DNA of 64,000 bases, taken from IMG/VR virus record IMGVR_UViG_3300045988_119030, positions 21,411-85,410 of that record; one strand, written 5' to 3'. The notes under the pieces are model-generated. The model did no database searches. It worked only from the letters and a program-made list of their open reading frames with translations, and was not told the origin of the DNA. Both the position numbers and the translations under genes were made by a program. This stretch comes from a virus. Of this stretch, positions 30,401-49,528 are shown in pieces. Positions within the stretch are counted from its first letter, which is position 1; each line of letters begins with the position of its first letter.

Positions 30401-33400
30401 TACTTTAAAAATAGATTTTATGGAATCTTCTGGAGATTATAATAGAGGATTTGCTAATTTAGTTAACGAGATTTATTCTAAACATCCAGTAGAAGACTAT
30501 AAAGATTCTTTTGATAATTATAATTTATATGGAAATTTAGAAGATTATCGCACTTCGGTAAAAGGATTCCCTGTTTTAGCTTTCCATTATATGTCCAACG
30601 ATGATAATACTTACTCTAAGGAAAATAGCAGTAATTGTATTTTTATTGGTAAATATAATATGCTATTAGATAAAGGGTCAGATGAATGCTATGGATTTAA
30701 GCCTAATAAAAAGATTTTACAAAATCAAATTATTGGAAGTCCTAAAATAAGAGATATAGCAGAATGCTGGGAATTTTAGAACAATTCAAGAACTTTTTGC
30801 TCTTTCCGCGACCCTTGGAATCGTTATAAATTATCATTTAGAAATCCTAATATGGTAATCCCTCCAGATGGAGATAATCCTGAATTAGTTAAAGGCGCTC
30901 CAAAAGTCGTTGATTCTTTTGAACCAAGATATAATCCAAATGATGATTTAATTGCTAAATAGTTATTTAATTTAAAAGACTGGGATGACCCAGATGGAAC
31001 ATAGACTAAGACTGTTGGAGAAGAATTAAAAAATGTAGCTCCTGATAGGCTTATTAAAAAAGAAATAATTGATGAAATTACTGGTGTAAAATCTATTAAA
31101 TGGATTATAAAAAATCCAGACGGAGAAGAAATAGAATTTAATGTTGGTAATAATACAAGTAAACAAGAATTGCTCTTAGCTTTAATGTCTAACTGGGAAG
31201 ATGCAGTTAGTTGGGTATGGAGTACTTGTTTAGATTGCGATATTGAATTTGATGATGGATAGAAATTAAAAATTCCATCTATGGGCATTTATACTAAAGT
31301 TGATGGATTAGCTGAAGCTATATATGTTCCTAATGTCTATTATGTTGAAGATGGAGTTAATGAAAATGGAAAAATTATTTATAAATTAGCTTCTGAAGAA
31401 TATAACTCTGAAACAAGATATTATAAGTAGATTAATGAAAATAATAGTTTAAAGTATGTAAGCATAAAACTTACAAATAATTCAGATAAAGTATATAAAG
31501 CAAATATTTATTATCTTTTAACTGATAGTAAAAATGAAATTTATGTATTAAGTTCTGATAAATTTAATTCTTCTTTAGATTATTATTCTTTTAATAAAAA
31601 TGAAGAAGGTATTGAGGAAAGATGGAAATTACCTAAACCAGTAATCTATGATTCTATTATTTATACTAAAGATAGTAAAGAATATCGTCAAGCTAAATTT
31701 AAAAATGAATTAAGTAATTTCTTTGATATTGAATATTTAGCTTCTTACCTTTTAATGACAGAAATTTTTGAATGTTATGATTCTCGTGGAAAAAATGCAA
31801 TGTTTGCTTCTTGGGGACCTCAAAAAGGTAATATTCAAAAATCTACTGGCAAACAACATTATATTTGGTATCCTATCTTTTATGATATTGATACTCAATT
31901 AGGTATTAATAATACTGGTATCCCATCTTTTGAATACTACATTGATGCTACTGAAGAAGGAAGTTTTTCAACTAATGATAGTGTTCTTTGGAATAATTTT
32001 TATACTTTCTTTAGAAGTAAGATGGTAGATAAATATAAGCAATTAATGGGAACTCAAAATAATTCTTATAGTCCAAACGATTCAAGAGTAAATAAAATTT
32101 TTACTAAAGGAGCAGGAAGCGGAGCTAAAAAGAGTGATATTGTAGATAAGTGGTATCGTACTGATCCATCAGTATTTCTTGATAGTTATGCAGTTTTAGG
32201 AGACCGACCAATTATTGCTTTAAGTTTAGACGAAGAATTTAAGTATATTATTCCAACAAACTCTAAAGCTGAAAATATGCCAGTGTTTGGTCGTTTAACT
32301 GATGGAGGTTCATATGAGGTTGAAGATGATAAATATTTTTATGCTTTGCAAGGAGATAGAAATCTTTATCGCGCACAATTTTTAGCTAATCGTCTTAATT
32401 ACATTGACTCTTGGTTGACTGTTGGCACTTATGCCAGAAATGGTGGAGGAAGCTATATTAGAAGTCGTATTTCCGCGAACAATCCTAAGAATACATCAGA
32501 TAAATGGATTGAAGGTACTAACACTCAAAATATGGAAGGATTAATTACAAATTCTCAGTATTGGAAAAATGGTGCTGAATTCAAAGAAAAAAATCATATG
32601 TTTGATGGTGAGTATTGGATCAACATGGAACCCGCGCGTAATGCCTATGTTACTATTGGTACAGATGGAGAGAATTTTCCTTCAAAAAAATATAATGGTT
32701 TAGAACCGGTTAAATATGTAGCTCCTGATATTAAAAAAGGAATTATGAGTAGCGGTAATTATAAAGAACAATTATATTATATTTATGGAATGGATCAAAT
32801 GAAATCTCTTGGTGATTTAAGTAAATTATATTTCCAAGAGTTTGCAGCTGAAGGAAAAATGGAGCGTTTAACTGATTTATTATTAGGATATGATGGAAAA
32901 GATGAAAGCGGTAATGAATATTTTAATAATGATGTAAATGACTGGTCTTTTTCAAAAGGTGGAATGCCTTTACTTAAAGAAATGAATCTTTGTAATATTA
33001 ACTTTAAAAAAGACTAGGGGGCATTAGATTTAACTAAAAGTGAAAAACTTGAAAACTTTAGAAACACTAAATCTAACATCCCGAGAGTTAATTTCGCTCC
33101 TGGAGTAGCTTTAAATACTTTATATTTAACCAATCGAACAAATTATTTAAGTTTAATAGAAGCTAATTTATTAACGAAATTAATAACTAATTATGTATAT
33201 CCTGAAAAAAATCCAATTACTGGAAAACTTGAGGTCTCAGATGAAAATCGTGGTTTATATATTCAAGGTCTTACTGATGCTGAAGAAGGAAAAGAAAAAA
33301 CTGAGATAAGAACTTTTGATATTCGAGGCGGTAATTTAGGTTATAATAGTTATGAATTGTTACGTAAATATATTTCAGCTAGTAAAAATAGTAAATTAGA

Positions 33401-35237
33401 TTTATCTAATTGTATTATTAATTTAAATAATGTTCAGTGGAGTCCATATAGGCTTCTGACTGATACTAAAACAACTCTCGACCCAGAAAGAAAATCTTAT
33501 TATAGAGATAATGGACATTTTTAGTTAACAGCTATTTCAAAAGATTAGGTTAATAAAATAACAAAATCTGATATTAAAAATAATTAGATTTATTATTTAG
33601 ATACAATAAATGGAGACAATAATAATCATAGTATAATAACTGATTATAATTTATTAATTGATATTTATAATAATTATAGGGGTCTTAATACTAATAAACC
33701 AGAAATATCTGGTGTTATGTATATAAAAAATAATAATTAGATTGATGAATCTATTATCTAGAATGAGTTATAGGACAAATACCCTGATTTAATAATTTTT
33801 GTAGAAAATGTTAAACAAGAATGTTCTGCCAAATTTATTTTAGAAAAAGAAGATATTGATGGAGTGTTAATTTAGGAGGTTCTAAAAACTTAGAAATTAC
33901 CCTTATCTAGCAGTAAATTCTTTGATGATCCAACAAATTCTTCTAGTGAAACTTATATTTCTTTTGGTAGCTTACAAGAAAAAATGCCAACTTATGATTT
34001 TAAAGGTTGGGAAGATGATACAGGAGAATTAGTAATTACTGTTGGAAAAAATGTAAATGAAGAAGATGTTGTTTTAAAAAGCGATTGGGATTCTTTGTCT
34101 TTACAATCTAATAAAATAGATTATGTTTTTAAAGCAAGATTTGAGCGCAAATCTTACACGATTACTTTCGTTAATGGTGACCGCGTTATTAATGATTTAA
34201 CTGTAAAGAAAGTATTTAATTATGGTGAAAGAATTACTGTTCCAAAAGAATTCTATTATTTTAATAATACAGAAGTATCTGATTTACCAGAAGGAGAAGA
34301 CTCATTAGAATGGACTTGGAGATAGACGGGATGGGCGGATAAAGATGGAGTTAAAATTGATTTAACTAAACAATTAGCCTATGCTAACCGCGAATTCTAC
34401 GCTGTTGGAGAGCCGATTAGTGTTTATGATAATATTTTAACTAATGATTCTACTCATAAATATTATGATATTATAAATTCTGATGGAGAGTTATCATTTG
34501 TAATGACTGACTTAGCTAAGAATTTAAAAGGCAAAGTTACTTTACCTACAACTTATAATGGTTAGCCAATTACAAGAATTAAATATAGTCAAGTTAACCC
34601 ATCAGCAGCAGTTGGTATTCAAGTAAATCCTAATATCACTGCGATATTTTTTGCTCCAAAAGATAGCAATAAAATTTCTGTAATAGATGATTATGCTTTT
34701 ATTTTAGATAGTGGGTTAGAATATTTCCAATTTAGTGATTGTTTAAAGAAAATTGGTACTAAAGCATTTTATCAATGTCCTTTAAGTCATAATAACATAA
34801 TTCCTTATTCTTCTTCTACTGAAGGTTTGACTTTTGGAGCTCAAGCATTTTATCAAAGCAAGATGGGTTCTTATTCTCCTTATAATTTAATTATAGAGGG
34901 ATGCAAAGACGGTATTCTTAATTTTGATATAAATGCATTTTCTGGTCAGACAATTTTAAATATGTCTGGTAATTAGTTTAAAGGTTATACTGGCGCTATT
35001 CAAGTATAGATTGGTACTAATAAACACCCAATTAAACAAATTACAGCAGATAGCTCTGGCAATATTTTTACTCCTCGTCAAACTGGTATGCCTACAGTGG
35101 CTAATGGATACACAGGTCGTTTTAGATATTATTATGTTGCTAGTTATGGTGAAAGTATTAAAAATATTTTACACAATATTTATGAAGCAATGATATCTAA
35201 TAGAGCGAATTTTGAAGAAGAGCCTATTGTAAAGTGA
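27492..35237 (+). CDS. Giant tail fiber or adhesin-like protein, about 2581 aa, about 40 in-frame TAG.
   Basis: RBS AAAGGAG, ATG at 27492. Standard-code ORFs 27573, 28341, 29538, 30369, 31755 and 33984 are all in frame 0. Triplet-by-triplet reading shows only TAG between them and a first TGA at 35235-35237. The N-terminus carries the shared fiber motif (..DGYFYVATDTGRVYLDT..). A Gly linker follows (AGAGGGGEGD). Confidence 0.6.
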
Positions 35238-35246
35238 GGATAAATT

Positions 35247-35447
35247 ATGGAAAAAGAAATTGTTTATAGATATATGGGTTCTAACGGTATTATTGAATCT
35301 TCTATATAGTTGACAGGAATTCCTGCGACTACTTTGTATAGATTAATAGCAGATTACAATAAGAAATTAACGAGAGATGGAAAAGAATTTTTTTCCATCT
35401 CTCCTTTAGTCCCTGAAAGTGAATTAAAAGAATGGTATGAGGTTTAA
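35247..35447 (+). CDS. Small hypothetical protein, 66 aa, 1 TAG.
   Basis: RBS GAGGA, ATG at 35247, TAA at 35445-35447. A terminator follows. Confidence 0.4.
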
Positions 35448-35482
35448 ATAGGCCAGAATACATTGATTTAAATATAAAAAAA

Positions 35483-35526
35483 ATTAGGTTAAATAGGAAA
35501 AGAAACTATTTAACCTAATTTTTTTA
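35483..35526 (+). terminator. Rho-independent terminator.
   Basis: ATTAGGTTAAATAG..CTATTTAACCTAAT hairpin followed by a T7 run. Confidence 0.65.
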
Positions 35527-35543
35527 GAAAGGAAGAGATAGAT

Positions 35544-37223
35544 TTGATAGTTAAAAATGATAGTGTTATCGAACAAGCTAAATGGGAAGAACTTCAAAAG
35601 AAAATCAATACTTTAGCTAAAGATAATAAAATAAAAAACGTTAATGGAAAAATCGTTGAAATAAAATCTATTGAAGACTATTATAGTAACATCACTGGTA
35701 TTGTTCAAATGAAGAAACTAGATCCATCTGTTCTTCGCATACCTTTAGATGAACCTATTATAAATATAAATGCTGATACTCGTCAAATTGAATTAACTAA
35801 AGAATTTGGAAAAACTCAATTACTTACTGTTGAAAATGATCATTTGGCAGAAACAATTTATTTTCAAATTGATAGATATTTTGATTTACAAGATTTAGCA
35901 GCTGATGATATTAAAATTTATATTTAGTATTATTTAAACGATCAAATTCAAGGTTATTCTGAAGCTATTTGCCCCGATATTGGTACTGCTGGAAAATTAA
36001 TTTTTGGTTGGCAAATTAGTGATGAAGTAACTAGTGAATCTGGTACTTTATAGTTTTCTATTATTTTCTTTAAAAAGAATCCAAAAGATAATAATAATTT
36101 AATGTATGTGTTTAATACATTACCTGCGCAAATGGTTATTAATAAAACTTTAGACATTGATGAAGATTTAGTTACCGCGCAACCTGTTGATTATTTAACG
36201 GGGTATTTAGAAAGTTTAATCGACTCAAAGAAATCCGCAGGTTTTGGAGTTCCTGATAATGTGGCTTTCTTGACAAGCATTTTAAATAACAAATCAGTTT
36301 ATTTAACTGGTGATAAATTATATGCTTTAGCTTATAATGATACTTTAAATAATCCAGATAATACTACTATTGAGTATAAATGGATTTGTAATTATAGAGG
36401 AACTAATACTGAATTAAAAAATGGTATTGGTTATGAATACAAAAAAATTGTTGATGATAATAGCATCTTTAGTGGAGATATGGCTTATAATGAAAAATTG
36501 ACCTATTTTACTAAAAATGGAGATACTTATATTAATAGTAGTAGTGATATTAATCTTGAAAATTATGTTGCTAAAAAGAATGACCTTTATTTAAAAGTTC
36601 AATATTGTGAAGTTGATGGATGCGGAAGTTATAGTGTGACAGCATTTGGCGCAACCGCGAATCAAGTGAGTAAAGAAGTTAAATGGGCTGGATTAGCTAT
36701 TTCTGTTGAAGGAATTAGTGAAGATTTTAGAATTGTTCTTGATCCTTCCCCTGATAATGGATGTTATTATGGTTCTTCTAATACTATTACTGCTGTTGGA
36801 TAGAATGATGAAGGCGTTCAGTGTACTTATCTTTGGAAAAAGAATGGCTCTGATTTTAGCACTGAAAAAACTGTAACTTTAACTAAAGAGGATAATTATA
36901 CTTTATCAGTTCATGGTTATAAAAATAAAGATAATATAGATTATCCTACAATTAGTTTTACTAATTATTTTGACCCAACTAATTTAGTTCCTGTTATTAA
37001 AGAAGTTTCAATTGAAAATGGAAAATATATTGTTAAACTCGAAAATACTAGTGAGTTAGGCAATGGTGTTTATGAATATCAATGGAAAAATGCGAATGGT
37101 CTTACTCAAAAAACAACTTCTGAAAATTCAACAGAAGTAGATGAAAATATTACTCAAGTAGCTGTAATTATCTAGAAAGGTGAAAGAAAATCAAAACCAG
37201 GAACCTTTAAGATTGAGGGGTAA
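35544..37223 (+). CDS. Structural protein, 559 aa. Its N-terminal domain is paralogous to the next gene; the C-terminus is Ig-like and repetitive.
   Basis: TTG start after GGAAG. Frame 0 links ORFs 35544 and 36102 through TAG. TAA at 37221-37223. Shares the DHLAETIYFQIDRYFD...NTLPA domain with the 37229 gene. Confidence 0.55.
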
Positions 37224-37228
37224 GATAA

Positions 37229-37848
37229 ATGATAACTAATCCAACTGATTATTATAGTGTTTTACATCAAATACAAGATGAAAACTTTCCAATTAAGTAT
37301 CCTGCTCTTCCAGCCCCAGAAGATGAAAAGTTAGTTTAGATAGATTTAAACTCAAGAACTATTAGTAATGAAAATAGTTATATTACAGTTGAAGGCGATC
37401 ACGCTGCTGAAATTATTTATTTTGAAATAGATAGATATTTTGATACTATGGATTTAACTAATATGATGTGTATTATTTAGTATATTAATGCTGATAATGA
37501 AAAACGCATTTATCCCGTTCCATATTATGATACTTTAACTCACAAAGATAAAATTATTTTTCCTTGGGTTTTAAATTATAGTGCTACTAAAAAATCTGGT
37601 GCTTTAAATTATATGATAACTTTTTATAAAATAGAAAAAGATTCTAATAATTTACTATATAATTTAAATACATTACCAGCAAGTCTTTAGGTTTATTCTA
37701 AACTTAATTTAGATTCTATCGTAAAAGAAGAAGATTATTATGTAATTGATGATAGCCAAGTAGTACAACAAATTTGGGAACGCTTAGCACGTTTAGAAGG
37801 ATTTGTTGGCGGTAATGGGTTGGATGTTTATTGGATTGTTCTCGAATA
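37229..37848 (+). CDS. Structural protein, 206 aa, paralogous to the N-terminal domain of the 35544 gene.
   Basis: ATG at 37229, 3 TAG, TAA at 37846-37848. Motif DHAAEIIYFEIDRYFD..NLLYNLNTLPA. Confidence 0.55.
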
Positions 37849-37857
37849 AATAAACTA

Positions 37858-37900
37858 AATGGTATAGAATTATTAATTTAATTCTATACCATTAATTTAT
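37858..37900 (+). terminator. Candidate hairpin terminator (AT-rich stem, weak T-tract).
   Basis: AATGGTATAGAATT..AATTCTATACCATT inverted repeat. Confidence 0.35.
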
Positions 37901-37922
37901 AGAAAGGAGTTATTGAAGATCG

Positions 37923-38948
37923 ATGGCTCTATTTAAAATTTTAAAAGGTGATTCAGATAGATTAGTCACCTATGATGCGAAAGCGGTTAATGGAAAAATA
38001 CCCTTTCCATCTTTAGATTCTGGAAAAACTTTATTTACAACAGTAGAAAGCACTCCTATTACAGAGGGCTATGCTTATTTTACAGAAGATACTCATAAAT
38101 TTTATATTGACACCGCGGACAAAAGATTAAATCTATATACCGATCATGCGGATTATGCTACCTATGATGAAAATGGTCGTAATTTAGCAGAATTGTCAGA
38201 AGTATCTTATGAAAATATTGATGATAATGGAAGTAAAATTGGTGCGATAAATATCAATGGAATTGAGTATAATGTTACTTGTCCTGCGAATGTAGTAAGT
38301 AAACCTGTAAATAAATATGTATTTACCGCGAAAGCAAATTAGAATACATTTACTATTCCTTTTGATTTTGATGATAGCAGTGCTTTAACTTTATATTATA
38401 ATGGTATTATGCTAAAAGAAAATGATCATTACACTGTTGAGGGAAAAGTTATTACTTTAAATGGGTGGACTAGTGAAGCTGATGATTATCTTACTGTAAT
38501 GGGTATTGAGGGTGCGGCCGCGATTAATGTTGACGAAAAAGTGGCTTAGATTCAAGAAGCAATAGATAACGCCGAAGTGACTATTAATAATAAAGTTACT
38601 GATGCTATTAAATCTATTGATGATAAACTAGCAACCGTTCCTGATGATGTAACACAAGCAGTTTATAAAAATAAATCCAACATAATGACCGCGGATGGTA
38701 GAATTACTATGGATAATAATTATGTTCCTACTGCTGATATGGAATTAGCTACTAAAAAATACGTTGATAATGCCACTCCTCCTACAGTTGGAACTACCAC
38801 TGATTATTCTATTTATATTGGATCTACTAAACCTGCTTCTGGAACTGCTCCTTTAGTGTGGATAGATACAACTGCTAAAACTGGCACTTTTAAATATAGA
38901 ACTTCTACCACAGGTACTTGGACACCTGTCCCCGTGGCTTGGATTTGA
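37923..38948 (+). CDS. Fiber-like protein, 341 aa, with the shared N-terminal motif. 2 TAG.
   Basis: RBS AAAGGAG. N-terminus FKILKGDSDRLVTYDA..GYAYFTEDTHKFYIDT. Frame 0 links ORFs 37923 and 38577. TGA at 38946-38948. Confidence 0.6.
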
Positions 38949-38982
38949 TATAAATTTATTGTAAGAAAAAGGAGATAATATT

Positions 38983-39390
38983 ATGGATCAAAATTTAATT
39001 AATCAATTGTTTCAAGTGTGTTTGATTCCTATGCTTGGTGCTTTAACTACTTTTATAGTTATTTGGATTAAAGCAAAAAGTGCAGAATTACAAAAGAAAA
39101 CTAATAATGATATTTTAAATAAATATGTGCAAATGGCTACTGACACAATTACTAATTGTGTTATTGCCACCAATCAAACTTATGTAAATTCTCTTAAAGA
39201 ACAAGGTAAGTTTGATGAAGCTGCTCAAAAAGAAGCATTTTAGAGAACTTATCAAGCAGTATTGCTCATTTTAAGTGATGATGCTAAAGAGTATTTGAAT
39301 AATGCTTTTGGTGATTTGAATAAATATTTACAAGAGAAGATCGAGTCTACAGTAAATAATTATCGTACTCCAAGTGATGATTTAAAATAA
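38983..39390 (+). CDS. Small membrane protein, 135 aa, with one N-terminal TM helix. Holin-like candidate. 1 TAG.
   Basis: RBS AGGAGA. TM segment LFQVCLIPMLGALTTFIVIWI. It is the last gene of the late operon before a bidirectional terminator. Confidence 0.4.
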
Positions 39391-39397
39391 TAAAAAT

Positions 39398-39441
39398 AAG
39401 GGAGACATTCTTAACTGAATGTCTCCCTTATTTTTTTTTTA
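39398..39441. terminator. Bidirectional rho-independent terminator between the late operon and the convergent regulator gene.
   Basis: AAGGGAGACATTC..GAATGTCTCCCTT hairpin, with an A-tract upstream and a T10 run downstream. Confidence 0.8.
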
Positions 39442-40155
39442 TCTAAATGGATTTTTCCATCGTCGATTAATTTCTTCATAGCCTTTTTTAGGAAAGTATA
39501 AAACTTCACCATTTTTAAAAGTTAAATTATCTTTATTCATTATTTTAATTTGATTTAAATTAATAATTAAACTTGGCGGAATAAAGACAAAATCTGGATG
39601 ATAAACTAAAGTTCCTATATAATTTTCAAAAGAAGTTTTTAAAGTTTTATTATTTAGAATTTCATTCTCTAAATGACAACACAAATTTCGTTTTTGGATA
39701 TCAGCATATAATACTTTACCCAAATCAATTTTTACTTCTCCGTTAGGAGTGTCTAAATATTTATATTCACGTCTTTTTTCTTCTCTAACTTCATGTAAAA
39801 TAGAAAAAATTTTTTCTTTATTAGCAGGTTTTTTGACGAAGTTAAATGCCTTTACTTCATAAGAAGCTACTCCATAATTTATTTGAGAGGAAACAAAAAT
39901 TATTTTTCCAATATACCCATTTGTTCTTAAGAGATGAGCTATTTCAATACCATCCATTTTTTTGAATGTAATCCCTAAAAAGATTGCATCATAATCAATA
40001 TTAGAATCAATTAATTTTCCAGGATCAGTAAATTTATATACATATCCCGGCAAATTAAATTCTTTAAAATACTGATTTATTATTTCTTCTAATGAGTCAT
40101 TTTGCTAATCGCTATTGTCGCAAACACCTACAATAAAAATTTTAATCACCTTCAT
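39439..40155 (-). CDS. LytTR-family DNA-binding regulator with a degenerate (pseudo) receiver domain, about 238 aa, 1 in-frame TAG.
   Basis: ATG at 40155. The listed ORF 39439-40053 is extended upstream through TAG (MKVIKIFIVGVCDNSD[TAG]QNDSLEE..). The REC-like region lacks the phospho-acceptor Asp (FLGI rather than FLDI) and lacks the acidic pocket. The C-terminal LytTR fold carries ..LCCHLENEILNNKTLKTSFENYIGTLVYHPDFVFIPPSLIINLNQIKIMNKDNLTF. Confidence 0.7.
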
Positions 40156-40199
40156 TTTGTTTATTTTAGAAAAAATTTTTCTATCTCTATATTTTCTCT

Positions 40200-40320
40200 A
40201 TATTATAATTATACAAAAATTTTTAAATATTGTAAAATAAAAAACTATAAAGTGTCAAATTTATTTAATTTTAAGTAAGTGAAATTTTTATTCAAAAAGT
40301 GTCAGTAATTATAATATATT
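40200..40320. promoter_or_regulatory. Divergent promoter region containing a direct repeat AAAGTGTCA (40249-40257 and 40296-40304) and a related AAGTGAAAT (40277).
   Basis: Leftward sigma70-like elements: TTGACA (reverse complement of 40253-40258) with TACAAT 18 nt downstream, plus an extended -10 TGTATAAT (reverse complement of 40208-40215). Rightward TATAAT at 40310-40315. The repeats are candidate LytTR operator half-sites. Confidence 0.35.
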
Positions 40321-40398
40321 TACACAAAATAAAAGTCATATAATAATGAAAGGAAAAGATAAAACCTTTCATTATTATATTTCTCCGAAGGTAATAAC

Positions 40399-40845
40399 AT
40401 GAATACTTATGGTTATCCATAGCAGTAGTATCCAATAGGTAATAATAGACCTATTTATGGAACAACTGCTACGCCTGTGATTCAAAACAATACTACATAG
40501 CGAATTAGACCCGTTGCTTCTTTAGAAGAGGTTCGAGCTATGAATATAGATTTTGATGGTTCAGTTTTTTATTTTCCTGACTATGCTAATCGTAGAATTT
40601 ATACAAAACAAATAAATATGGATGGAACAGCTTCTATTAATATGTATGAATTAAAAGAAATCCCAAATTCTTCTTAGCCTAATAATGACTATATAACACG
40701 AGAAGAGTTTAATACTACCTTAACTTCTATTAAAGAAGTATTTGCATAGATCATGGGATCCAATAATGCGGTTGCGCCGTCTTAGGAATCGGGTTAGCCA
40801 GCTCAATAGCAACCAACAGAGAGCAAACCGCAGTTTAATTTTTAA
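40399..40845 (+). CDS. Hypothetical Gln/Pro/Asn-rich protein, 148 aa, about 8 TAG.
   Basis: ATG at 40399. A single frame runs to TAA 40843-40845. Low-complexity termini (YGYPQQQYP.., ..SGQPAQQQPTESKPQ). Confidence 0.4.
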
Positions 40846-40857
40846 GGAGAGTTTCAA

Positions 40858-41106
40858 ATGACACAATCAATGAATCCAATGCAAATTATTGCTATGATTA
40901 AAAACGGTCAAAATCCATAGCAATTAGTTTTATCTATGCTTGAAAATCAAATGGGCGGAACGCCAATGGGCAATAATTTATTACAAATGGCACGGAACGG
41001 TCAATCTGATGACATTGAAAAATTTGCTCGTAATTTGTTTGAATCAAGAGGTTTGAATTTCGATAAAGAATTTAATAGTTTTAAGTCCCAAATGGGGTTT
41101 AAATAA
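40858..41106 (+). CDS. Hypothetical small protein, 82 aa, 1 TAG.
   Basis: RBS AAGGAGAG, ATG at 40858, TAA at 41104-41106. Confidence 0.45.
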
Positions 41107-41132
41107 ATAAAATTATAGAAAGAGGTTTTGTT

Positions 41133-42014
41133 ATGTTTAATTACAATTATCCAATGAGCACGCCGAATTATTCATTATCTGATATTGCTGCGGCTTCTGG
41201 AAATGGCTATCGTAATAATGATGGCGGAATGTGGGGAGACGGAGCATGGTGGATTATTATCCTATTCTTATTCTGCTTCAATGGTTGGGGCGGTAATGGC
41301 TGGGGTAATAATGGTGCTAATGGTTCTGGTTTCCAAGGCACTACAACCCGAGAAGAAATTGGCTATGGTTTTAACATGAGCGATCTTAAATCTGGGGTTA
41401 ATGGTTTAGCTTCTAGCCTTTGCAATGGTTTTAGTGGAGTAAACACTAATCTTTTAAGTGGTTTTGCTAATCTTGCTGAAACTAATAATGCTAATACTCG
41501 CACTTTACAGAGTGATATCTGTAATATGGGTATGAATAATATGCAGAATACTTTTAGTATCACTCAGGCTATTAATGCTGATACTGTAGCAAGTATGCAG
41601 AATACTAATAATTTAACTCAGCAATTAAATAATATGGCAGCTACTAATGCTCAATGCTGCTGCGAGAATAAACAGTTAGTTCAGTCTAGTTTTGCTGATC
41701 TTAATTATAATCTTGCTAGTATTGCTTGCCAGAATCGTTAGGCTACCGTTGATGGTGTCCGTGATATTATTGATAACAATAATGCTAATATGCGTTCTAT
41801 TCTTGACTTCCTTGTTCAAGATAAAATTGAGACTCTTACCAGTGAAAATAGCACTCTTAAAAATTAGATTTCTCAAAATCTTCAAAATGCTTATCTTATT
41901 GATCAGTTGTCTCCAAAAGCAACTCCTGCTTATATTGTTGCTAATCCTTATACCGGTGTTAGTTATACTAGCTATGGATGCGGATATGGTTCAGGATGCG
42001 GTTGCAATTCCTGA
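41133..42014 (+). CDS. Gly/Asn-rich membrane protein, 293 aa, with one TM helix and a Cys-rich C-terminus. 2 TAG.
   Basis: RBS GAGG. Listed ORF 41133-41741 continues through TAG to TGA 42012-42014. N-terminus ..GMWGDGAWWIIILFLFCFNGWGGNGWGNNG (YjcZ-like Gly-aromatic plus TM). C-terminus ..YGCGYGSGCGCNS. Confidence 0.55.
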
Positions 42015-42035
42015 TTGAAGAAAGAAGGTTAAATT

Positions 42036-42458
42036 ATGGAAATAACGGCTAATGCTTTACAATCAGTTGCTACTGGTTCTAATGTAGTATTCACTAACAC
42101 AGCTGTTGCTGGAAACTGTTCCATAATGTATCGCGAGGGTAGCGGTCTAGTTACCCTCCGCGGTCTTACGAACGGTCAACGCAGAGCTCGTTTCCGCATT
42201 TCATTTGGAGGTAATATAGGACTTCCAACCACTGGAACTGCGGGTGCTATTTCTTTGGCTATAGCTATTAATGGAGAGCCAGTTACTACTTCTACAATGA
42301 TTTCTACTCCTACGGCTACTGGACAGTTTAATAATGTTTCACGTGCTTTATTCCTCGATGTGTTAGGCGGTTGTTGCACTCAAATTAGTATTGAAAACAC
42401 GAGTTCATAGGCTATTGATGTTGAAAATGCCAGCTTAATTATTGAGAGAGTGGCATAA
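42036..42458 (+). CDS. Protein of about 140 aa resembling the C-terminal (C1q/TNF-like) domain of BclA-type exosporium or collagen-like proteins. 1 TAG.
   Basis: ATG at 42036. ORF 42036-42410 extends through TAG to TAA 42456-42458. The beta-rich sequence ..VVFTNTAVAGNCSIMYREGSGLVTLRGL..GAISLAIAINGEPVTTSTMISTP..ISIEN.. is typical of that fold. Confidence 0.45.
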
Positions 42459-42471
42459 GGAGGTTTTTTAA

Positions 42472-43017
42472 ATGTGTGATAAATTCCAAGAAATTAAAAA
42501 GCAATTATTAACTCAAGTAGAAAGCCAAATGGCTCATTTAGAATGTGTTGATACAAAGGAAATGGGCGAAGTAATAGATATGATAAAAGACCTTGAAGAG
42601 GCCATTTATTATTGCACTATTACTGAAGCTATGAATGAATTACCTGAAACCACACATTATTATACTGAAAAATATAAATCTCCTCATAAAAAAAGAATCT
42701 ATAAACCTATGACATATAATTATAATTGGGAAGATTATGATTACGATGAACATGAATATGAGATGCCAACGAGTGGGAAATCTCATGAAACCCATGATAG
42801 CAGAGAAGGTCGTAGTGGCGTCCACAGAAAGATGTATATAGAAGCCAAAGAACTTCATAAAGATAAGAGTGTTTAGATAAAAGAGTTAGACAAGTATCTC
42901 CAAGAATTAAGTTCTGATATAGTAGAAATGATTGAAGATGCCTCTAATGATGAACGTTCTTATATGGAGAAGAAAATCTAGGCTTTAGCATCTAAAATTG
43001 GATCTATGAATGGTTAA
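42472..43017 (+). CDS. Hypothetical acidic or charged protein, 181 aa, 2 TAG.
   Basis: RBS AAGGAGG, ATG at 42472. ORF 42472-42876 extends through TAG to TAA 43015-43017. Overlaps the next gene by 8 nt. Confidence 0.5.
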
Positions 43018-43309
43018 TATTAATAATAGGAATTGGAGGATACTATTAGTATCTTCCAATCATCCTATGTTAATGCGACCTTCTGGAATATATACTTTAG
43101 GTTCTTGCGATGATCCTACTTCAACAATTTATATTAATGAAAATATTAGTAATAAAAAATTAAAAAAAGTATTAGCGCATGAACTAACTCATGCTGCTAT
43201 TTTTAGCTACGATATTTCATTAAAACCAGAAGAAGAAGAATTGATTGCGGATTTGGTAGGAACCTATGGTGAAGAAATTATAAATAATACTAATCTTTTA
43301 TTTAAATAG
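43010..43309 (+). CDS. Small HExxH protein, 99 aa. Putative Zn-metallopeptidase-like (ImmA/SprT-like) domain.
   Basis: The start overlaps the upstream gene, which suggests translational coupling. Motif VLAHELTHAAIF followed by an acidic stretch. No TAG. Confidence 0.5.
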   Translation: MVNINNRNWRILLVSSNHPMLMRPSGIYTLGSCDDPTSTIYINENISNKKLKKVLAHELTHAAIFSYDISLKPEEEELIADLVGTYGEEIINNTNLLFK

Positions 43310-43311
43310 AT

Positions 43312-43362
43312 AAAAAAAATAAGGGAATGAAACTATTTTTGTTTCATTCCCTTATTTTTTTT
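43312..43362. terminator. Bidirectional rho-independent terminator.
   Basis: AAGGGAATGAAAC..GTTTCATTCCCTT hairpin flanked by an A8 run (left) and a T9 run (right). It separates the + strand accessory operon from the convergent - strand gene. Confidence 0.8.
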
Positions 43363-43363
43363 A

Positions 43364-43792
43364 TTAGTCTTTAAGCGGTAATTTTAAAGTCCTTTCATAG
43401 TACTCTTTAGCCTATCCATTTCCACCTAAACCTGCATATACTTTAAAGAATTCGACTAACTATTCATACTGTCCTGAAGTCATATATCCTTGTTTTAAGA
43501 AACTTTGACATAATTGAATTAATCTAAATCTATAAGAAGCAAGAATTATTTCAATATATTTCTCACTACTTTTCTTTTCTTCCAATACGAAAGATCTTAA
43601 ATTATTTAAATCTTCTTTAATTGGAGCTATATGTTCTTCAATTAATTCTTCTAATTGTTCATCTTTCTTTTCTTCTGCCAATTTTTGATACATTTTCATT
43701 TGAGTATAAATATATCTACAAAAGGCTAAGAGGCCAGCAGAAATAAGACCAAAAAATATTTCTATAAAATGCTAGGCAATAAAAGCAGACAT
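43364..43792 (-). CDS. Hypothetical membrane protein, about 142 aa, with an N-terminal TM helix. 3 TAG.
   Basis: RBS AAGGAGG 8 nt upstream of ATG at 43792. N-terminus MSAFIA[TAG]HFIEIFFGLISAGLLAF. ORF 43460-43699 is an internal fragment. Stop TAA at 43364-43366. Confidence 0.5.
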
Positions 43793-43870
43793 AAAAAATA
43801 CCTCCTTCCACTTAACTTCTAATATATTTTAAAAGAAGGGAAGGAGGATTATTTATTTAAGGCCTATTTA

Positions 43871-44383
43871 TTACTCCCAATTAAAATCATTATTGGAACT
43901 TTCTTTCGTGAAATATGCGGTATATAAACATATGGCATCACATATATCATCATTGGCTTTTATATTATATTTTTGCTATACAAAATCAATATCGGCTTGT
44001 TTAAGAGTTTCACGTTTAATACTGCGACCGGTTTTAATTCCGAGTTTTTTACGCCATTCACTTGCCTACATTAATTCTAATGTTTTAGAAGTAAATGAAG
44101 AATTAACTCCATGCGCGCCTAACATTACTGCACCTTGAAGCCACATTAATAAACGTGAAGTATCAGAATATCCATAAGTTTCAGGATGAACATCTTCTGC
44201 TACTATCTTCTCTATATTATATTTTTTTACTAATTCAATAATCTAATCTTGTATTTTTTGTATTCTGTCTAAATTATTAGAGGAAACTGCGGTTAGCAGT
44301 CCATAATCTAACATTTTTCCCTCATTATTAGATACACAATAACCAGTAGATTTAGTAGATAAATCTAAAAAGAGGATATTCAA
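43871..44383 (-). CDS. ruvC: RuvC-like Holliday junction resolvase (phage type), about 170 aa, 3 TAG.
   Basis: RBS AAAGGAGG, TTG start at 44383. N-terminus NILFLDLSTKSTGYCV (catalytic Asp motif). ..IVAEDVH.., ..DDICDAICL.. Only TAG interruptions. TAA at 43871-43873. Confidence 0.65.
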
Positions 44384-44416
44384 GTAATTACCTCCTTTCT
44401 TTAAGGTTTGAGGTAA

Positions 44417-44935
44417 TTACTTTGAAGTTGAGCCAAATCCTCCAAGGCGGTCACCAGAAGCATTATCGTCTTCGGTGATTAAATAAGGTTTAATAATACC
44501 TTGACCAATGACATCCCCTTTATGAAGTTGAATATCAAAAGGAGATAAATTAATCATTTGAAAATAAATATGTCCTTCATTTTCAGGATTATTATAATAG
44601 TCTGCGTCAATAATTCCAACGCCATTAGCAAGAATAAGCCAATATTTTAAAGGACAAGAACTGCGAACTGATAATTCAAGATATGTATTATCATTTAATT
44701 CACATTTAATTCCAGTAGGCACAAGAGTTGGTTTTGCTTTAAGATTTTTTGTCATATTACTCATATCTTCAAGAGAAATTGAATCAAAATAACGTGTTGG
44801 AAATCTATTTAGCAAATTCTTATATGCTGGAATTACAACATCTTCTGCTACTGTAAAATCATAGCCTGCGGATTTCGCTGTTTTTCTTACAGGCAAAACC
44901 GCGTCTGGATATTTGCTTACTCGTTCAAACTTCAT
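44417..44935 (-). CDS. dut: dUTP diphosphatase (dUTPase), 172 aa.
   Basis: Motifs RKTAKSAGYDF, GVGIIDADY, GDVIGQGII and C-terminal GGFGSTSK. No TAG. Confidence 0.9.
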   Translation of the reverse strand: MKFERVSKYPDAVLPVRKTAKSAGYDFTVAEDVVIPAYKNLLNRFPTRYFDSISLEDMSNMTKNLKAKPTLVPTGIKCELNDNTYLELSVRSSCPLKYWLILANGVGIIDADYYNNPENEGHIYFQMINLSPFDIQLHKGDVIGQGIIKPYLITEDDNASGDRLGGFGSTSK

Positions 44936-45183
44936 TAAAAGCTTACCTCATAATTTACATCAATATTACTAATAGGGTCTTTTTCATCATTGAATTTTTT
45001 AACAAGAGTGACTTGATACCATTCATCGACAATTTCACCCTTAGCCTTTTTTTCTTTCTTTACTGAACTATACTTAGCTAAAATATATTTAGTTTCAGCC
45101 TTAGCCTCATCAATAAGCGCGGCCGCACTTTCCTCATTATCTACACGATAAACTTCTGTAGCACTTACAAGATACTTATTCAT
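44935..45183 (-). CDS. Hypothetical protein, 82 aa.
   Basis: Uninterrupted ORF, ATGA overlap with dut in an operon arrangement. Confidence 0.5.
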   Translation of the reverse strand: MNKYLVSATEVYRVDNEESAAALIDEAKAETKYILAKYSSVKKEKKAKGEIVDEWYQVTLVKKFNDEKDPISNIDVNYEVSF

Positions 45184-45443
45184 TAACCTACCTCAACTTT
45201 AATTTCTTTTCTATTGGAATAATTTAAACTATTACTTTCATAAATTTTTGGAATTAATTCATTAATAAAATCTTCAATACCATATAAACGTATAGTATCA
45301 GTATCGTTTTTATAACAAGATGCTACTAAAACATTTGGAAGATCAGAAATGCTACAAGTTCCAATAGCTACTGCCGTTCCGTCATCATAAGTTTTAAAAA
45401 CATTTTGTTCCATTGAAAATAAATTAATATTACAAACAATCAT
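45183..45443 (-). CDS. Hypothetical protein, 86 aa.
   Basis: Uninterrupted ORF with start/stop overlaps to both neighbours. Confidence 0.5.
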   Translation of the reverse strand: MIVCNINLFSMEQNVFKTYDDGTAVAIGTCSISDLPNVLVASCYKNDTDTIRLYGIEDFINELIPKIYESNSLNYSNRKEIKVEVG

Positions 45444-45977
45444 TTAATTACACTCCACAATACCAGCATCATATTGGAATAAATAAAAACAATAAGATTC
45501 ATTATCAATATTTATCCAAATTTCAATAGCGCCATCATTATTTTTTTCCCAACCAACAATACTTCCTAATTCTTGACAAAGTATAATTACCATACTCGCT
45601 ACAGAACCAGTTGAAATAATTGGAGGAATATTTTTGTGAAAAATGGTATAATAATTATAATCTTTACATAATAACATATAATACATTCCATATTCACTCA
45701 TTCCATTAATACTACTCATTAATTTATTTAATTCTTCTTCATTAATTGGATCCATTTGTATCATAATATTTTTATTAAAATCATATAAATTCATTCCAGT
45801 TTGAAATGTAGTAGAATTATCTGACAAATTATTAGTAGTAGTTCCTATCATTACCCATTCATTTCCAGTGTAACAATATTGTTTCTGATCTTCACCAGAA
45901 ATGGCAATAGTTCCTTCTTTGAATTTACGAGGAGAATTATATAATTCTCCCATTGTATTAGTATAAAAAACATTCAT
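45444..45977 (-). CDS. Hypothetical protein, 177 aa.
   Basis: Uninterrupted ORF, tightly packed in the same - strand operon. Confidence 0.5.
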   Translation of the reverse strand: MNVFYTNTMGELYNSPRKFKEGTIAISGEDQKQYCYTGNEWVMIGTTTNNLSDNSTTFQTGMNLYDFNKNIMIQMDPINEEELNKLMSSINGMSEYGMYYMLLCKDYNYYTIFHKNIPPIISTGSVASMVIILCQELGSIVGWEKNNDGAIEIWINIDNESYCFYLFQYDAGIVECN

Positions 45978-46016
45978 TGTTATATAATCTCCTATCTATT
46001 TCATAGAAAAATTATA

Positions 46017-46511
46017 TCACAAATTTTCTTTTTTGTCAAGTTTTAAATTAATAATGTTCTAATTGCGGGAACCGCGCAAAGGCAAAGTGATATCTCTTTC
46101 CTTTTGGATATATGGTCCATCAATTAAGTAATCAGCGGTTTTTAATATATTTTTAATTCTAATATTATTACTATTCTTTAAATCATCATAAATATATCCA
46201 GTCCATATATATATTTTAATGTTTGGATATATTTTTTTAATTTCAGTAATAACTAAATTAGTTAAAAATTCATTTTCAGGGCAGAGAGGTTCTCCACCCA
46301 TAATACAAAGATTACGCTCAACATTATTCGCATTAATGGCAGTAATTAATTCATTTAATACTTTATTAGTAAATTCTTTGCCACCATTAAAATCCCACGT
46401 TTCAGGATTCTGGCATCCTTCACAATGGTGCGGGCACCCTTGTGTAAAAAATGATACACATACTCCGGGTGCCGCCGCCAAATCATTCTTTATAATTCCT
46501 GCATATTTCAT
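46017..46511 (-). CDS. nrdG: Anaerobic ribonucleotide reductase activating protein (radical SAM).
   Basis: CPHHCEGC radical-SAM cysteine motif, ..IMGGEPL... The listed ORF ends at a TAG (46058-46060). If TAG is sense, the protein extends 12 aa to TGA 46017-46019. Confidence 0.85.
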
Positions 46512-47185
46512 ATATCCTTTATTTCCTCCACTTCTAAATCTAAATCATTAACGTCATCTTCATCATCAGTTTCAATATAATAAGCAGAACACTAACAATT
46601 AGTATGGTAAGGAGGAAGAGGAATATCTTCTCCTGCCGGATACTCTCCATCCCATTCGCTGCATAGATCACCGCAAGTCCCTGATTCAATTACGAGTATT
46701 GAAGCTACGGGTCTTATTTTCATTTCCATTAAATGAGTGAATAAATATTTACTTTCATTATTCAATAGACGAGAATACATATTAACACTAAAACTTTTTA
46801 AATTATCTGAAAAATCACCAGATAATCTTTTTTCTTCTAAGTCATCTAAATATTTAATAATTCGCTCATCTAATGTTTTTCCGTCTTCTTGAAAAGTTAA
46901 ATTTGCGATATTCTGCAAATTAAATGGAGCTACTTTTGTGTAAATTTTTCCTAATTCTATATTAATCTCTGAATAAAGATTTTCTAAAGCTTTATAAAAT
47001 AAATTTATTAGAATAGTTTGATGTTCTTCTGTATTAATTTTTTCATCATTAGCTATCCAAGAAAATATTATTTTTATAATTGCTTCTAATTCCGAATCAA
47101 TTTTTTTATTTAATACTTCAGTAGCTTTTTCTAATTTATGTTTTATTTTCTAATGCTTTTTTAAAGGTTTTTTAGAATAATTCAT
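46508..47185 (-). CDS. Hypothetical protein, about 225 aa, encoded between nrdD and nrdG. 3 TAG, Cys-containing C-terminal region with an acidic tail.
   Basis: ATG at 47185, 10 nt after the nrdD stop. ORF 46592-46918 is an internal fragment. The stop TGA overlaps the nrdG ATG (ATATGA). Motif ..ESGTCGDLCSEWDGEYP... Confidence 0.5.
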
Positions 47186-47197
47186 TCTATAACCTCA

Positions 47198-49453
47198 TCA
47201 TTCTAACATTCCTGTATGTTTTACTCTTGCTTCAACTTCTTTTTGCTTACCCCAGTTAAAAGCAGTTTTATAATTGCCCGTAAGATAACCAGTCACACGA
47301 CGTAATTGCTGAATATTATAGCTTCCGCACACTGGACAAGAATCATTAAATTCATCACAATAACCGCATTCAAGACAAGTATCATTAGGAACATTTACTG
47401 CAAAATAAGGGATATCGTGATCCATCGCATAATTAACAATAGTTTCAAGAGCATCAATATTGTGTTTTACAGTAGAATCAAGTTCAACATAAGTAATACA
47501 TCCTGCGGATGAATAACCAGTCAGCTCAGATTCAATATCAATTTTTTCAAACGGACTCATTTCTTTCCACACTGGAACGTGAATACTATTAGTGAAAAAT
47601 TCTCTATCACTAACATTAGGAATAATTCCATACCTTTCTTTAAATTTTGTCATAGCAGTATAACAAAGATTTTCTGCTGGAGTATAGTATACACCAAAAT
47701 TTAATTTATATTTTTCTTTGTATTCAGCGCATCTATCTTTAAATAATTGTTCAATTTGTTTAGCTAATTCCATTCCTTCTGAAGTGGTGTGGTCTTTGCC
47801 AATAAGAATTTGAAGAGTTTCAGCCAAACCTAACTGACCAATAGCAAGAGTTCCGTGCTTAAGAGCGGAACGAATTCCTTCTTCTGGAACATAACCTGCC
47901 ATAACATTATTTTCATACATAAATCTCGCGGAACCTGGATCTTGAGAACAAATCCATTCAAAACGTTCCATTAATTGAATACGTGCTTCATTGATTTTTC
48001 TATCGAGTAAAGACATAAATCGTTCTACACCAATTTTAGTCCGTTCTTCTTGGGATAATGACTTATAGTCATCCCAATTATCATTTTCATTTAGAGTAAC
48101 GGCCATCATCGCAAGAGTTGGAAGAATAATAGTAACTGGACAAATATTTCCACGTCCATCTTTAAGCTGACCGAATCCATTGATATCCCAACCATTTGCA
48201 GTTCTACATCCCATCGTAGAAAAATAAGTGCGAGGATCATTAATATCATATCCAGCATTACCAGACCAATCAACATTTGCATAATTAGGATAAAGGCGTC
48301 TCGCGGTGCTTTCTAATGCTAATCTATATAAATCATAATTAGGATCACTAGGCTTGCGGTTAACACCTTTCATACATTGGAAAATTCCACAAGGAAAAAT
48401 TGAAGTTTTATGTAATTTACCAAGACCTTCAATAGAAACATCTAATAATGCCTTAGTTACCATTCTGCCTTCTGGTAAAGTGCAAGTGCCATAGTTAATG
48501 CTTGTAAATGGTAATTGGTTGCCACTACGAGATTGTAAAGTATTAAGATTATGGTAAAGGCCTTCTGCAGCTTGATGAGTTTCGCGAGTGGTCATTTTCA
48601 TAGCGTATTTATATGCTTTTGGAAATGATTTATAAAAATCATCATCAATAGGAGTTTCTTTACTGTAACAACCATCATATTTACTCATATCTAATCCTTC
48701 ATATAAAAATTCAATACCATCATTGAAATGTTTAAAGAAAGATTTTCTTACATAAGGAACCATAGTCCAATCTAAGTGAGTAGCACTAACTCCACCAAAC
48801 TAACAAAGACTTTGGATTTGAAAAATAACAGCAATTAATTGAAACGCTGTATTAATTGAACCAGCAGGACGAACATCTGCTTGACGAGTATTAAATCCAT
48901 TAGCAAGCAAATTATCAAAAGGAATACTTAAACAGTTATGAGAACCGACATAATAAGAATCAAGATCGTGAGTATAAATAATATTATCAATATGGTTCTT
49001 ACGAGCCATAGGTGAAAGTAAATAATCAAGTGCAAGTTGTTTGGTAACAACACTACTTGCTTCCCCTATACGACCACCGAATGAATGTTCATCAACATTA
49101 GCATTTTGATTTTTTACATTATTACCATCGAGCTTTTCACGAATTGCTTTAATAAAATCATCTTTTTTATTACGAGCAACTTCTTTTTTATATCTATATC
49201 TGATATAAGCACGAGCAACATCGCGTCGCTCAGAACGCATTAAATAATCTTCAATCCAATCTTGAAGATCTTCTACTCCGACGCTTCCATCGGGGAAATG
49301 ATTTATTTGTCTTTCAATGTCTTCCGCGATATCTTTTGCGGTATCATCTTCATATAATTTACCATCAACTTCAATAAATGCTTTATTTATTGCATTAATA
49401 ATTTTCTTTTTATTAAATTGAGTTATACTTCCATCACGTTTAATAATATACAA
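47198..49453 (-). CDS. nrdD: Anaerobic ribonucleoside-triphosphate reductase (class III), about 751 aa, one in-frame TAG at 48800-48802.
   Basis: N-terminal ATP-cone (MYIIKRDGSITQFNKKKI..). C-terminal Zn and glycyl-radical region (CLECGYC..CPVCGS..RVTGYLTG). ORFs 48800-49453 and 47198-48763 are in the same frame and are joined through TAG plus 12 sense codons (..FGGVSATHLDWT-MVPY..). Confidence 0.9.
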
Positions 49454-49528
49454 TTTTTTTGGCCTCCAAACTAAATATAGTAGTTCTTTTAGAATATTCT
49501 ACTATATTTAGGTTTTGTTAGTAAATAA

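Follow-up and report, generated by a model that had tools for sequence, protein, structure and literature searches.

A positionally conserved REC–LytTR regulator with a degenerate receiver in a family of TAG-recoded gut phages

Described LytTR and pseudo-receiver systems and their relation to the phage gene

AgrA (S. aureus) and ComE (S. pneumoniae) are response regulators of quorum sensing that consist of two domains, a receiver (REC) joined to a LytTR DNA-binding domain. A further LytTR response regulator, CdtR of C. difficile, is an orphan without a cognate kinase and controls neighbouring genes from a chromosomal or toxin-locus position. For phages that have recoded TAG, the main proposal is that the timing of late gene expression is set by the recoding itself, and the regulators of recoded gut phages are, to our knowledge, essentially unknown. 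Our literature term searches found no description of LytTR or response regulators in recoded phages, and a term search of a preprint on recoding (bioRxiv 10.1101/2021.08.26.457843) likewise found no mention of either.

Here we describe such a gene in a recoded phage. Throughout, the window is the whole 64-kb stretch of viral DNA that was analysed. The gene is annotated at 39439..40155 on the minus strand (238 codons, from ATG 40155 to the TAA at 39439-39441), and its product of ∼233–238 aa, depending on the start codon, shares with AgrA and ComE both the two-domain REC + LytTR architecture and the folds. Unlike AgrA and ComE, it has a Gly in place of the phospho-acceptor Asp and has lost the second acid of the pocket, it is encoded by a TAG-recoded phage, and it has PPS in place of the LytTR ‘HRS’ motif; its identity to these proteins is 16–17%. 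Also unlike the situation for AgrA and ComE, AgrC/ComD-type kinase, pheromone or transporter genes were not recognised near the phage regulator.

The agr P2/P3 region is a divergent-promoter region having same-orientation repeats ∼20–21 bp apart (PMC4227749, PMC2766830), and the phage regulator similarly lies at a divergent promoter region with candidate same-orientation repeats. The LytTR Regulatory Systems (HdrRM/BrsRM; PMC6193735) have no receiver and possess a co-transcribed membrane inhibitor, whereas the phage regulator has a receiver and is monocistronic, standing between a promoter and a terminator. The aspartate-less or pseudo-receivers (ALR domains, e.g. RitR) retain the receiver fold without the phospho-acceptor (PMC4395418, PMC12632262). 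The phage protein is like the ALR regulators in having a receiver fold without the phosphotransfer residues, and it is presumably active or regulated without phosphotransfer; unlike them, the phage lineages erode the active site in different ways and show a Gly/Asp polymorphism. A term search of PMC4395418 and PMC12632262 gave no occurrence of LytTR, phage or virus. The gene is a clear phage example for a poorly understood class of pseudo-receiver regulators, and its natural Gly and Asp alleles are directly comparable.

Pieces of LytTR-type signalling have been noted in phages before: agr genes in Clostridium phages and LytTR proteins in Pseudomonas phages (review PMC11945551). The C. difficile phage phiCDHM1 carries agrB/C/D, the kinase and pheromone side, with no AgrA; the phage studied here is the reverse, having the regulator only. 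The ‘two-component response regulator’ of the C. difficile phages LIBA2945 and LIBA6276 gave a weak, receiver-only match (30% identity over 44% of the query). With all these elements the shared trait is the carriage of LytTR-type signalling pieces, with no close sequence relationship. The regulator also matched PHROG 8810 (function unknown) over its full length (E = 3.6e-25), which means that REC–LytTR-like proteins are already catalogued in phage genomes; this family has no functional annotation, and the degenerate receiver, the synteny and the recoding are not recorded for it.

Domain architecture and the active site of the receiver

The preliminary description of this DNA, made from the sequence, had placed a receiver-like domain in front of a LytTR fold. 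Profile searches and structure prediction bore this out. Pfam Response_reg (PF00072) matched residues 52–119 with 34.3 bits, above its cutoff of 30.2. Pfam LytTR (PF04397) matched residues 141–233 along almost the entire profile (positions 4–97 of 98; 17.5 bits, E = 0.005) and did not reach the curated cutoff of 22.6. Hence, the profile check proposed in that description came out above the cutoff for the receiver and below it for LytTR; the low LytTR score is partly explained by the PPS that replaces the canonical ‘HRS’ motif. The best partial matches in NCBIfam were LytR, BtsR and AgrA. When 1.84 billion representative proteins were searched exhaustively, 7,424 relatives were found, mostly full-length at 22–35% identity; a word-indexed protein search had given only 4. 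Among 41 aligned relatives, Response_reg was found in 37 and LytTR (E ≤ 1e-3) in 25.

We made an AlphaFold model on the variant P0001, which is 96% identical to the window protein and also has G61, using 127 homologues (pLDDT 95.7, pTM 0.82). The receiver part was modelled as alternating strands and helices, and residues 131–233 mostly as beta strands. The best PDB match of this model in Foldseek was full-length ComE (4cbv, E = 9e-14); the LytTR domain of AgrA (4g4k) was matched at a TM of 0.78, the B. cereus structure 3d6w was also matched, and many receiver structures were found at TM 0.8–0.9. The family profile matched ComE at E = 8e-21 and the LytTR domain 3d6w at E = 5e-13. From the profiles, the model and the Foldseek matches, the REC + LytTR assignment with the AgrA/ComE architecture is secure. 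The pseudo-receiver domain spans aa 7–128 (39772..40137, minus strand), as delimited by Pfam Response_reg, the secondary structure of the model and the active-site columns, and the LytTR domain spans aa 131–233 (39457..39765, minus strand), as delimited by Pfam LytTR, Foldseek and the family profile.

We aligned the receiver with known receivers and with its relatives. The ‘FLGI’ of the window protein aligned with the ‘FLDI’ of the MrkE, LytR-type and ComE receivers, so that Gly61 (GGG, codon 61; 39973..39975, minus strand) stands opposite the acceptor Asp, whose place is the end of beta-3. The acceptor Asp is therefore absent in this phage, as had been claimed earlier. This column has Asp in 114 of the 128 nearest relatives, with Gly confined to the phage clade, and position 61 remains Gly in all the variants of the window lineage whose gene reads through. 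The earlier claim that the acidic pocket is missing was right for one residue and wrong for the other: N14 replaces the second Asp of the pair after beta-1, the Mg2+ site (Asp is present there in 106 of the 128 relatives), but D13 is kept. The Thr/Ser position of beta-4 (S89) and the Lys of beta-5 (K109) are also kept.

Comparison of the related phage lineages revealed several different states of this site. The window lineage, L022 and L001 have D followed by N or K in the acidic pair, together with the acceptor Gly. In L028, the acidic pair is S Y, the acceptor is Gly and the Lys is changed to Tyr. L054 and L053 have S G and Y G, respectively, at the acidic pair and an Asp at the acceptor position. 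The L007 lineage has D R with either acceptor residue, and its near-identical proteins carry GGT (Gly) in L007, L008, L009 and L047, and GAT (Asp) in L048 and L051. Loss of the Asp is thus not fixed as a trait of the whole family. Another recoded fragment, L029, which has seven TAGs, possesses an intact receiver (DD + D). Such lineage-specific loss of the active site is the pattern that relaxed constraint on the phosphotransfer chemistry would produce. The different erosion in each lineage gives firmer support for phosphorylation independence than Gly61 alone, and it strengthens the earlier suggestion that the regulator is probably phosphorylation-independent.

The preliminary description had also reported no histidine kinase nearby, and we found none, either in the ORFs of the window, which covers 64 kb of a genome of up to ∼200 kb, or within ±8–10 kb of five related phage loci. 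P0013, the nearest standard-code relative examined, overlaps a downstream kinase gene (HATPase_c_5, AgrC-type). Genes for a pheromone precursor, its processing or its export were not recognised among the neighbours by Pfam and PHROG, a search that short peptide genes may escape.

TAG recoding, neighbourhood and expression signals

The window is AT-rich (GC = 30%) and clearly TAG-recoded. When TAG was read as sense, the total length of the ORFs of at least 100 aa rose to 22,402 aa, compared with 14,518 aa in the standard code, and the longest ORF grew from 1,337 to 2,981 aa. Codon 28 of the regulator is TAG in the variants L018 and L025 and a CAA/CAG Gln codon in the window, and this TAG/CAR exchange indicates that TAG is decoded as Gln. 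Neither a tRNA nor a suppressor tRNA was found within the 64-kb window. The regulator gene is itself recoded, having a TAG in its N-terminal region as noted earlier: codon 17 (40105..40107, minus strand), at the start of helix alpha-1, is an in-frame TAG whose decoding as Gln is required for read-through.

The codon-17 TAG is kept in every variant where this codon is covered, and in-frame TAGs are present in all the copies of the regulator across the phage lineages. In all the recoded lineages, a TAG falls inside alignment columns 14–18, at the start of helix alpha-1. This N-terminal TAG is the only one in the gene in the window lineage, L022, L053 and L054, where the other Gln codons, 5–8 in number, are CAA or CAG. 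From one lineage to another its position drifts by a few columns, and this speaks for selection and not simple inheritance. We also calculated the density of TAG per 1000 codons, which was 13.7 in the late operon, 15.8 in the divergent operon, 3.5 in the replication block and 4.2 in the regulator gene.

With TAG as sense, the window resolved into four parts, the outer two being a long late operon (32-39390, plus strand) and a replication block (43364-63755, minus strand). The last gene of the late operon encodes a holin (38983..39390, plus strand; phrog_13712, E = 6.7e-38) and is convergent with the regulator. The regulator is the lone minus-strand gene between the late operon and a plus-strand operon of six genes (40399..43330), which has a late-type TAG density and is its putative target. 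The gene had been described as lying at the hinge of the late and early modules and convergent with the late operon. The convergence is correct, but the hinge is not exact, as the 2.9-kb plus-strand operon stands between the regulator and the early, minus-strand block.

Most products of the divergent operon received no function from Pfam and PHROG, and sequence searches against the PDB with two of its genes gave no matches. The product of 42036-42458, in this operon, modelled as a BclA/ExsF/BxpB-like TNF/C1q jelly roll (pLDDT 84; 9h38, E = 1e-7) and has >4,700 homologues, with identities of 71–99% among the best 120; the model suggests a virion or surface protein. The gene content includes a DnaE-type polymerase, NrdDG, a helicase and a primase, and neither an integrase nor a repressor was seen in the window or the flanks. 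By its gene content and genome size, the phage looks lytic.

In a family of large gut phages that have recoded TAG and whose contigs reach 201 kb, the regulator is one of the core genes and keeps its position. The fixed order of holin, regulator and divergent operon is kept in seven lineages. In the relatives, the regulator is convergent with a holin of ∼130 aa and divergent from conserved small genes, with dUTPase, NrdG and NrdD farther on. The identity to the window protein is 93–99% in 17 IMG/VR variants, 84% in L022, 68% in L001, 45–47% in L007, L047, L048 and L051, 35% in L028, 31% in L054 and 28% in L053. The identity to the standard bacterial relatives is only 22–34%. Against four variants, the dN/dS of the regulator was 0.08–0.15, which denotes purifying selection, and from this we concluded that the gene is functional. 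At the nucleotide level, a megablast of the region 30000-50000 of the window against 50,697 INPHARED phage records gave no match. Apart from one standard-type regulator on a Treponema-labelled contig, a scan of genome collections returned only phage contigs that had been binned into MAGs (with the labels Mollicutes and Clostridium), which do not point to a host.

A bidirectional intrinsic terminator with a 19-bp stem (39392..39435) is common to the holin and the regulator. The Rfam scan of 39300-40600 gave just far-sub-threshold matches, on this terminator hairpin. On the other side, the predicted regulator promoter is of the sigma-70 type (TTTACA-17-TATAAT; 40208..40236, minus strand) and matches the consensus at 11 of 12 positions; its GTATAAT block is invariant in the five-sequence alignment A5.

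For the start codon, we noted that the annotated ATG 40155 varies, being TTG in L022 and L042 and TGG in L001. A Shine–Dalgarno sequence, GAAGGTGAT (40145..40153, minus strand), is kept in three lineages and overlaps the annotated codons 2–4, and a conserved ATT (40140-40138) sits 8 nt downstream of it. In the L007 lineage, just ATC, ATA or ATT is available after the GGAGG, and L053 and L054 have a proper SD–ATG start at the position equivalent to ATT 40140. As the ATG is unconserved, and the SD and the ATT are conserved, the start is probably ATT 40140, which would give a protein of 233 aa. On the plus strand, a TATAAT-like element marks the start of a stem-loop with perfect 16-bp arms (40338..40380), and the RBS of the divergent operon follows shortly after its end; a hairpin at this place is kept in 7 lineages, with differing stem sequences.

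Candidate operators and possible roles of the regulator

The divergent promoter region comprises 243 bp (40156-40398) and contains conserved ACACTT-type direct repeats. We designated three candidate operator boxes in it, all on the minus strand. Box A, CTGACACTTTTT on the regulator strand (40294..40305), is an invariant block with the 9-mer repeat. Box B, TTCACTTAC (40275..40283), shares the orientation of box A and is 20 bp away from it, and box C, TGACACTTTAT (40247..40257), lies ∼11 bp upstream of the −35 of the regulator promoter.

The motif AAGTG[AT] occurs three times in one orientation in this region (40250, 40277 and 40297), whereas the remaining 2.3 kb of intergenic DNA has a single copy. 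Enrichment of the AAGTG 5-mer alone was not significant, being reached by 398 of 2000 shuffles. The exact 9-mer AAAGTGTCA is present twice in 40156-40398, a result that 20 of 2000 shuffles equalled or surpassed; a scan of the window for AAAGTGTCA with one mismatch found 24 sites against 18 expected, which is the chance level. In a five-sequence alignment of the intergenic region, no invariant block outside the −10/promoter and RBS elements is longer than box A (CTnACACTTTTT, regulator strand), down to 45% protein identity.

The A–B spacing in four lineages is 20, 20, 21 and 19 bp. LytTR regulators bind 9-bp repeats having a 12-bp spacer (PMC2766830), and the spacing of 19–21 bp fits this rule; the B–C spacing of 27 bp departs from it. 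In the lineage of 45–47% identity, boxes B and C are degraded, and no box is clearly recognisable at ≤35% identity. In an exact-match scan of IMG/VR, the A–B pair was present once per contig in at least 10 contigs of this phage (68–197 kb), a pair that is not specific within IMG/VR, as >119 contigs, mostly unrelated, were matched. By their conservation and resemblance, boxes A–C are candidate LytTR operators, and they could serve another factor. We also considered a late-promoter role for the motif across the whole late region and rejected it, as the other intergenic regions lack the motif.

The reading that we prefer, and to which we assign about an even chance, is that the gene encodes a phage-resident, kinase-less pseudo-receiver LytTR factor that would act locally, on its own promoter and on the adjacent TAG-rich operon. 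Host RNA polymerase would transcribe the gene from the near-consensus sigma-70-type promoter. Translation would begin at the weak ATT and would be finished only with TAG decoded as Gln, so that the protein would appear only after amber suppression has become active. The REC domain may act as a dimerisation or regulatory module, and the LytTR domains would bind the ACACTT-type direct repeats A and B (19–21 bp apart) and box C by the −35. In this way, the regulator would control its own promoter and switch on or modulate the adjacent late-type operon. The near-consensus nature of the promoter argues against a strong need for auto-activation.

A dedicated switch, in which host polymerase makes the mRNA from the outset, the early amber codon and the weak ATT block synthesis of the protein until TAG is suppressed and the TAG-rich late operon is then turned on, seems unlikely; if true, it would constitute a translational-to-transcriptional feed-forward gate, as yet undescribed in recoded phages. 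A conserved kinase-less LytTR regulator that has an early amber codon and lies beside a late-type operon offers a testable link from the code switch to transcription.

It is also conceivable, though rather doubtful, that the regulator is directed at the host, either by binding to host LytTR-controlled promoters or by pairing with or titrating a host LytTR regulator. The host promoters meant here are those of quorum sensing, bacteriocin, competence and autolysis, circuits that the LytTR regulators usually control. The full ComE/AgrA architecture and fold of the phage protein is consistent with such a role, as are the phage-borne agr genes and LytTR proteins noted in reviews (PMC11945551) and the single exact A–B pair per contig in at least 10 phage contigs, which leaves room for host targets. 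However, the gene is old and positionally fixed in the phage family, in lineages down to 28% identity; the 22–34% identity to the standard bacterial relatives speaks against a recent capture from a host, and the conserved candidate sites are found in promoter DNA of the phage itself. The earlier idea that the phage taps or mimics a quorum-sensing regulon of its host is therefore not upheld, as the gene has diverged together with the phage family and looks like an old phage-resident regulator, giving no evidence for phage eavesdropping on bacterial quorum sensing. A switch of lysis timing, or between lysis and lysogeny, by which the regulator would control the adjacent holin/lysis cassette or the lysogeny decision, had been suggested as well and we regard it as quite improbable. 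The regulator adjoins the holin gene convergently, the LytTR family is named for autolysis regulators, and a role of recoding in the timing of lysis has been proposed (bioRxiv 10.1101/2021.08.26.457843). But AAGTG-type boxes are present neither upstream of the holin nor in the other late intergenic regions, a strong bidirectional terminator separates the holin from the regulator, and a phage without an integrase or repressor in the window or flanks, and with this gene content and genome size, looks lytic. A role in quorum sensing or lysogeny is thus unsupported.

Within the preferred reading of a local, phage-resident factor, the receiver would work without phosphotransfer. That it is still controlled by a signal from a host kinase or a small phosphodonor, at least in the Asp alleles, with the Gly alleles in a locked state, appears very improbable, even though D13, S89 and K109 are kept, the sister lineage has GAT (L048, L051) as well as GGT (L007–L009, L047) alleles, and the L029 fragment retains the intact DD + D receiver. 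Against it, the acceptor position is Gly in every readable variant of four lineages, that of the window among them, N14 or R has taken the place of the second acid, the lineages that keep the acceptor Asp (L053 and L054) have lost both acids of the pocket, and no kinase is encoded nearby. The degenerate active site, the sub-cutoff Pfam LytTR score and a frameshift in the regulator of the variant L026 might instead point to a captured two-component regulator that has lost its function and is decaying. This is essentially excluded by the dN/dS of 0.08–0.15, the full-length frame kept at a fixed position in seven lineages, the very confident fold prediction (pLDDT 95.7) and the conservation of the promoter and the SD.

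Start codon of the regulator gene

The ATG annotated as the start of the regulator gene (window 39439-40155, minus strand) is not conserved among relatives. In the start region (window 40138-40155, minus strand), we observed that a conserved Shine-Dalgarno (SD) sequence, GAAGGTGAT, overlaps codons 2-4 and is followed 8 nt downstream by an ATT that is conserved as well. In the lineage of the related locus L007, only ATC, ATA or ATT is found after the SD. As the ATG is unconserved, while the SD and the ATT are conserved and the L007 lineage offers only these three codons, the sequence comparison suggests that the regulator is translated from a near-cognate start codon.

Receiver variants, recoding and contig labels

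The phospho-acceptor codon is GGT (Gly) in L007, L008, L009 and L047, whereas it is GAT (Asp) in L048 and L051. This Gly/Asp polymorphism is natural and occurs within one phage lineage, the regulator proteins being near-identical otherwise. The REC-LytTR gene of a 1-kb metagenomic fragment (L029:147-851) contains seven in-frame TAGs and encodes an intact receiver, having both the acidic pair (DD) and the acceptor Asp; therefore, apparently standard REC-LytTR versions also exist in recoded phages. In one IMG/VR variant (L026:6001-6716), the regulator gene has a frameshift after ∼133 codons; either the assembly may be wrong here or this copy may truly be inactivated.

TAG is not absent from the replication block (window 43364-63755, minus strand), where it occurs at 3.5 per 1000 codons, and the gene at 58174-59922 has six. 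Several apparent TAGs at codons 2-12 of the replication genes may result from starts called too far upstream.

Two contigs of this phage family were deposited within bacterial MAGs, L050 (CAMELE010000001.1, 164 kb) under the label 'uncultured Mollicutes' and L051 (JALFMW010000253.1) under 'Clostridium sp.'. These placements are likely due to mis-binning, and the labels are unfit as host evidence.

Stem-loop and further products of the divergent operon

A stem-loop with 16-bp arms, perfect in the window (40338-40380), has a TATAAT-like element at its start, and its end lies shortly before the divergent operon's ribosome-binding site. A hairpin is kept at the equivalent site in all seven lineages (window, L042, L001, L007, L028, L053 and L054); the stem sequences differ between them, and compensatory changes are present at four of the six consensus pairs. 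It could be a 5′-terminal mRNA stabiliser or a palindromic operator.

The structure model of the 140-aa product of 42036-42458 (plus strand; phrog_20016) predicts a TNF/C1q jelly roll like that of BclA-CTD, ExsF and BxpB; Bacillus exosporium proteins have this fold. The best 120 of its >4,700 homologues are 71-99% identical, so that its conservation far exceeds that of the regulator. The last gene of the operon (43010-43330, plus strand) encodes a 106-aa HExxH-motif protein with weak matches to DUF2268 / M78 (IrrE/ImmA-like) metallopeptidase.
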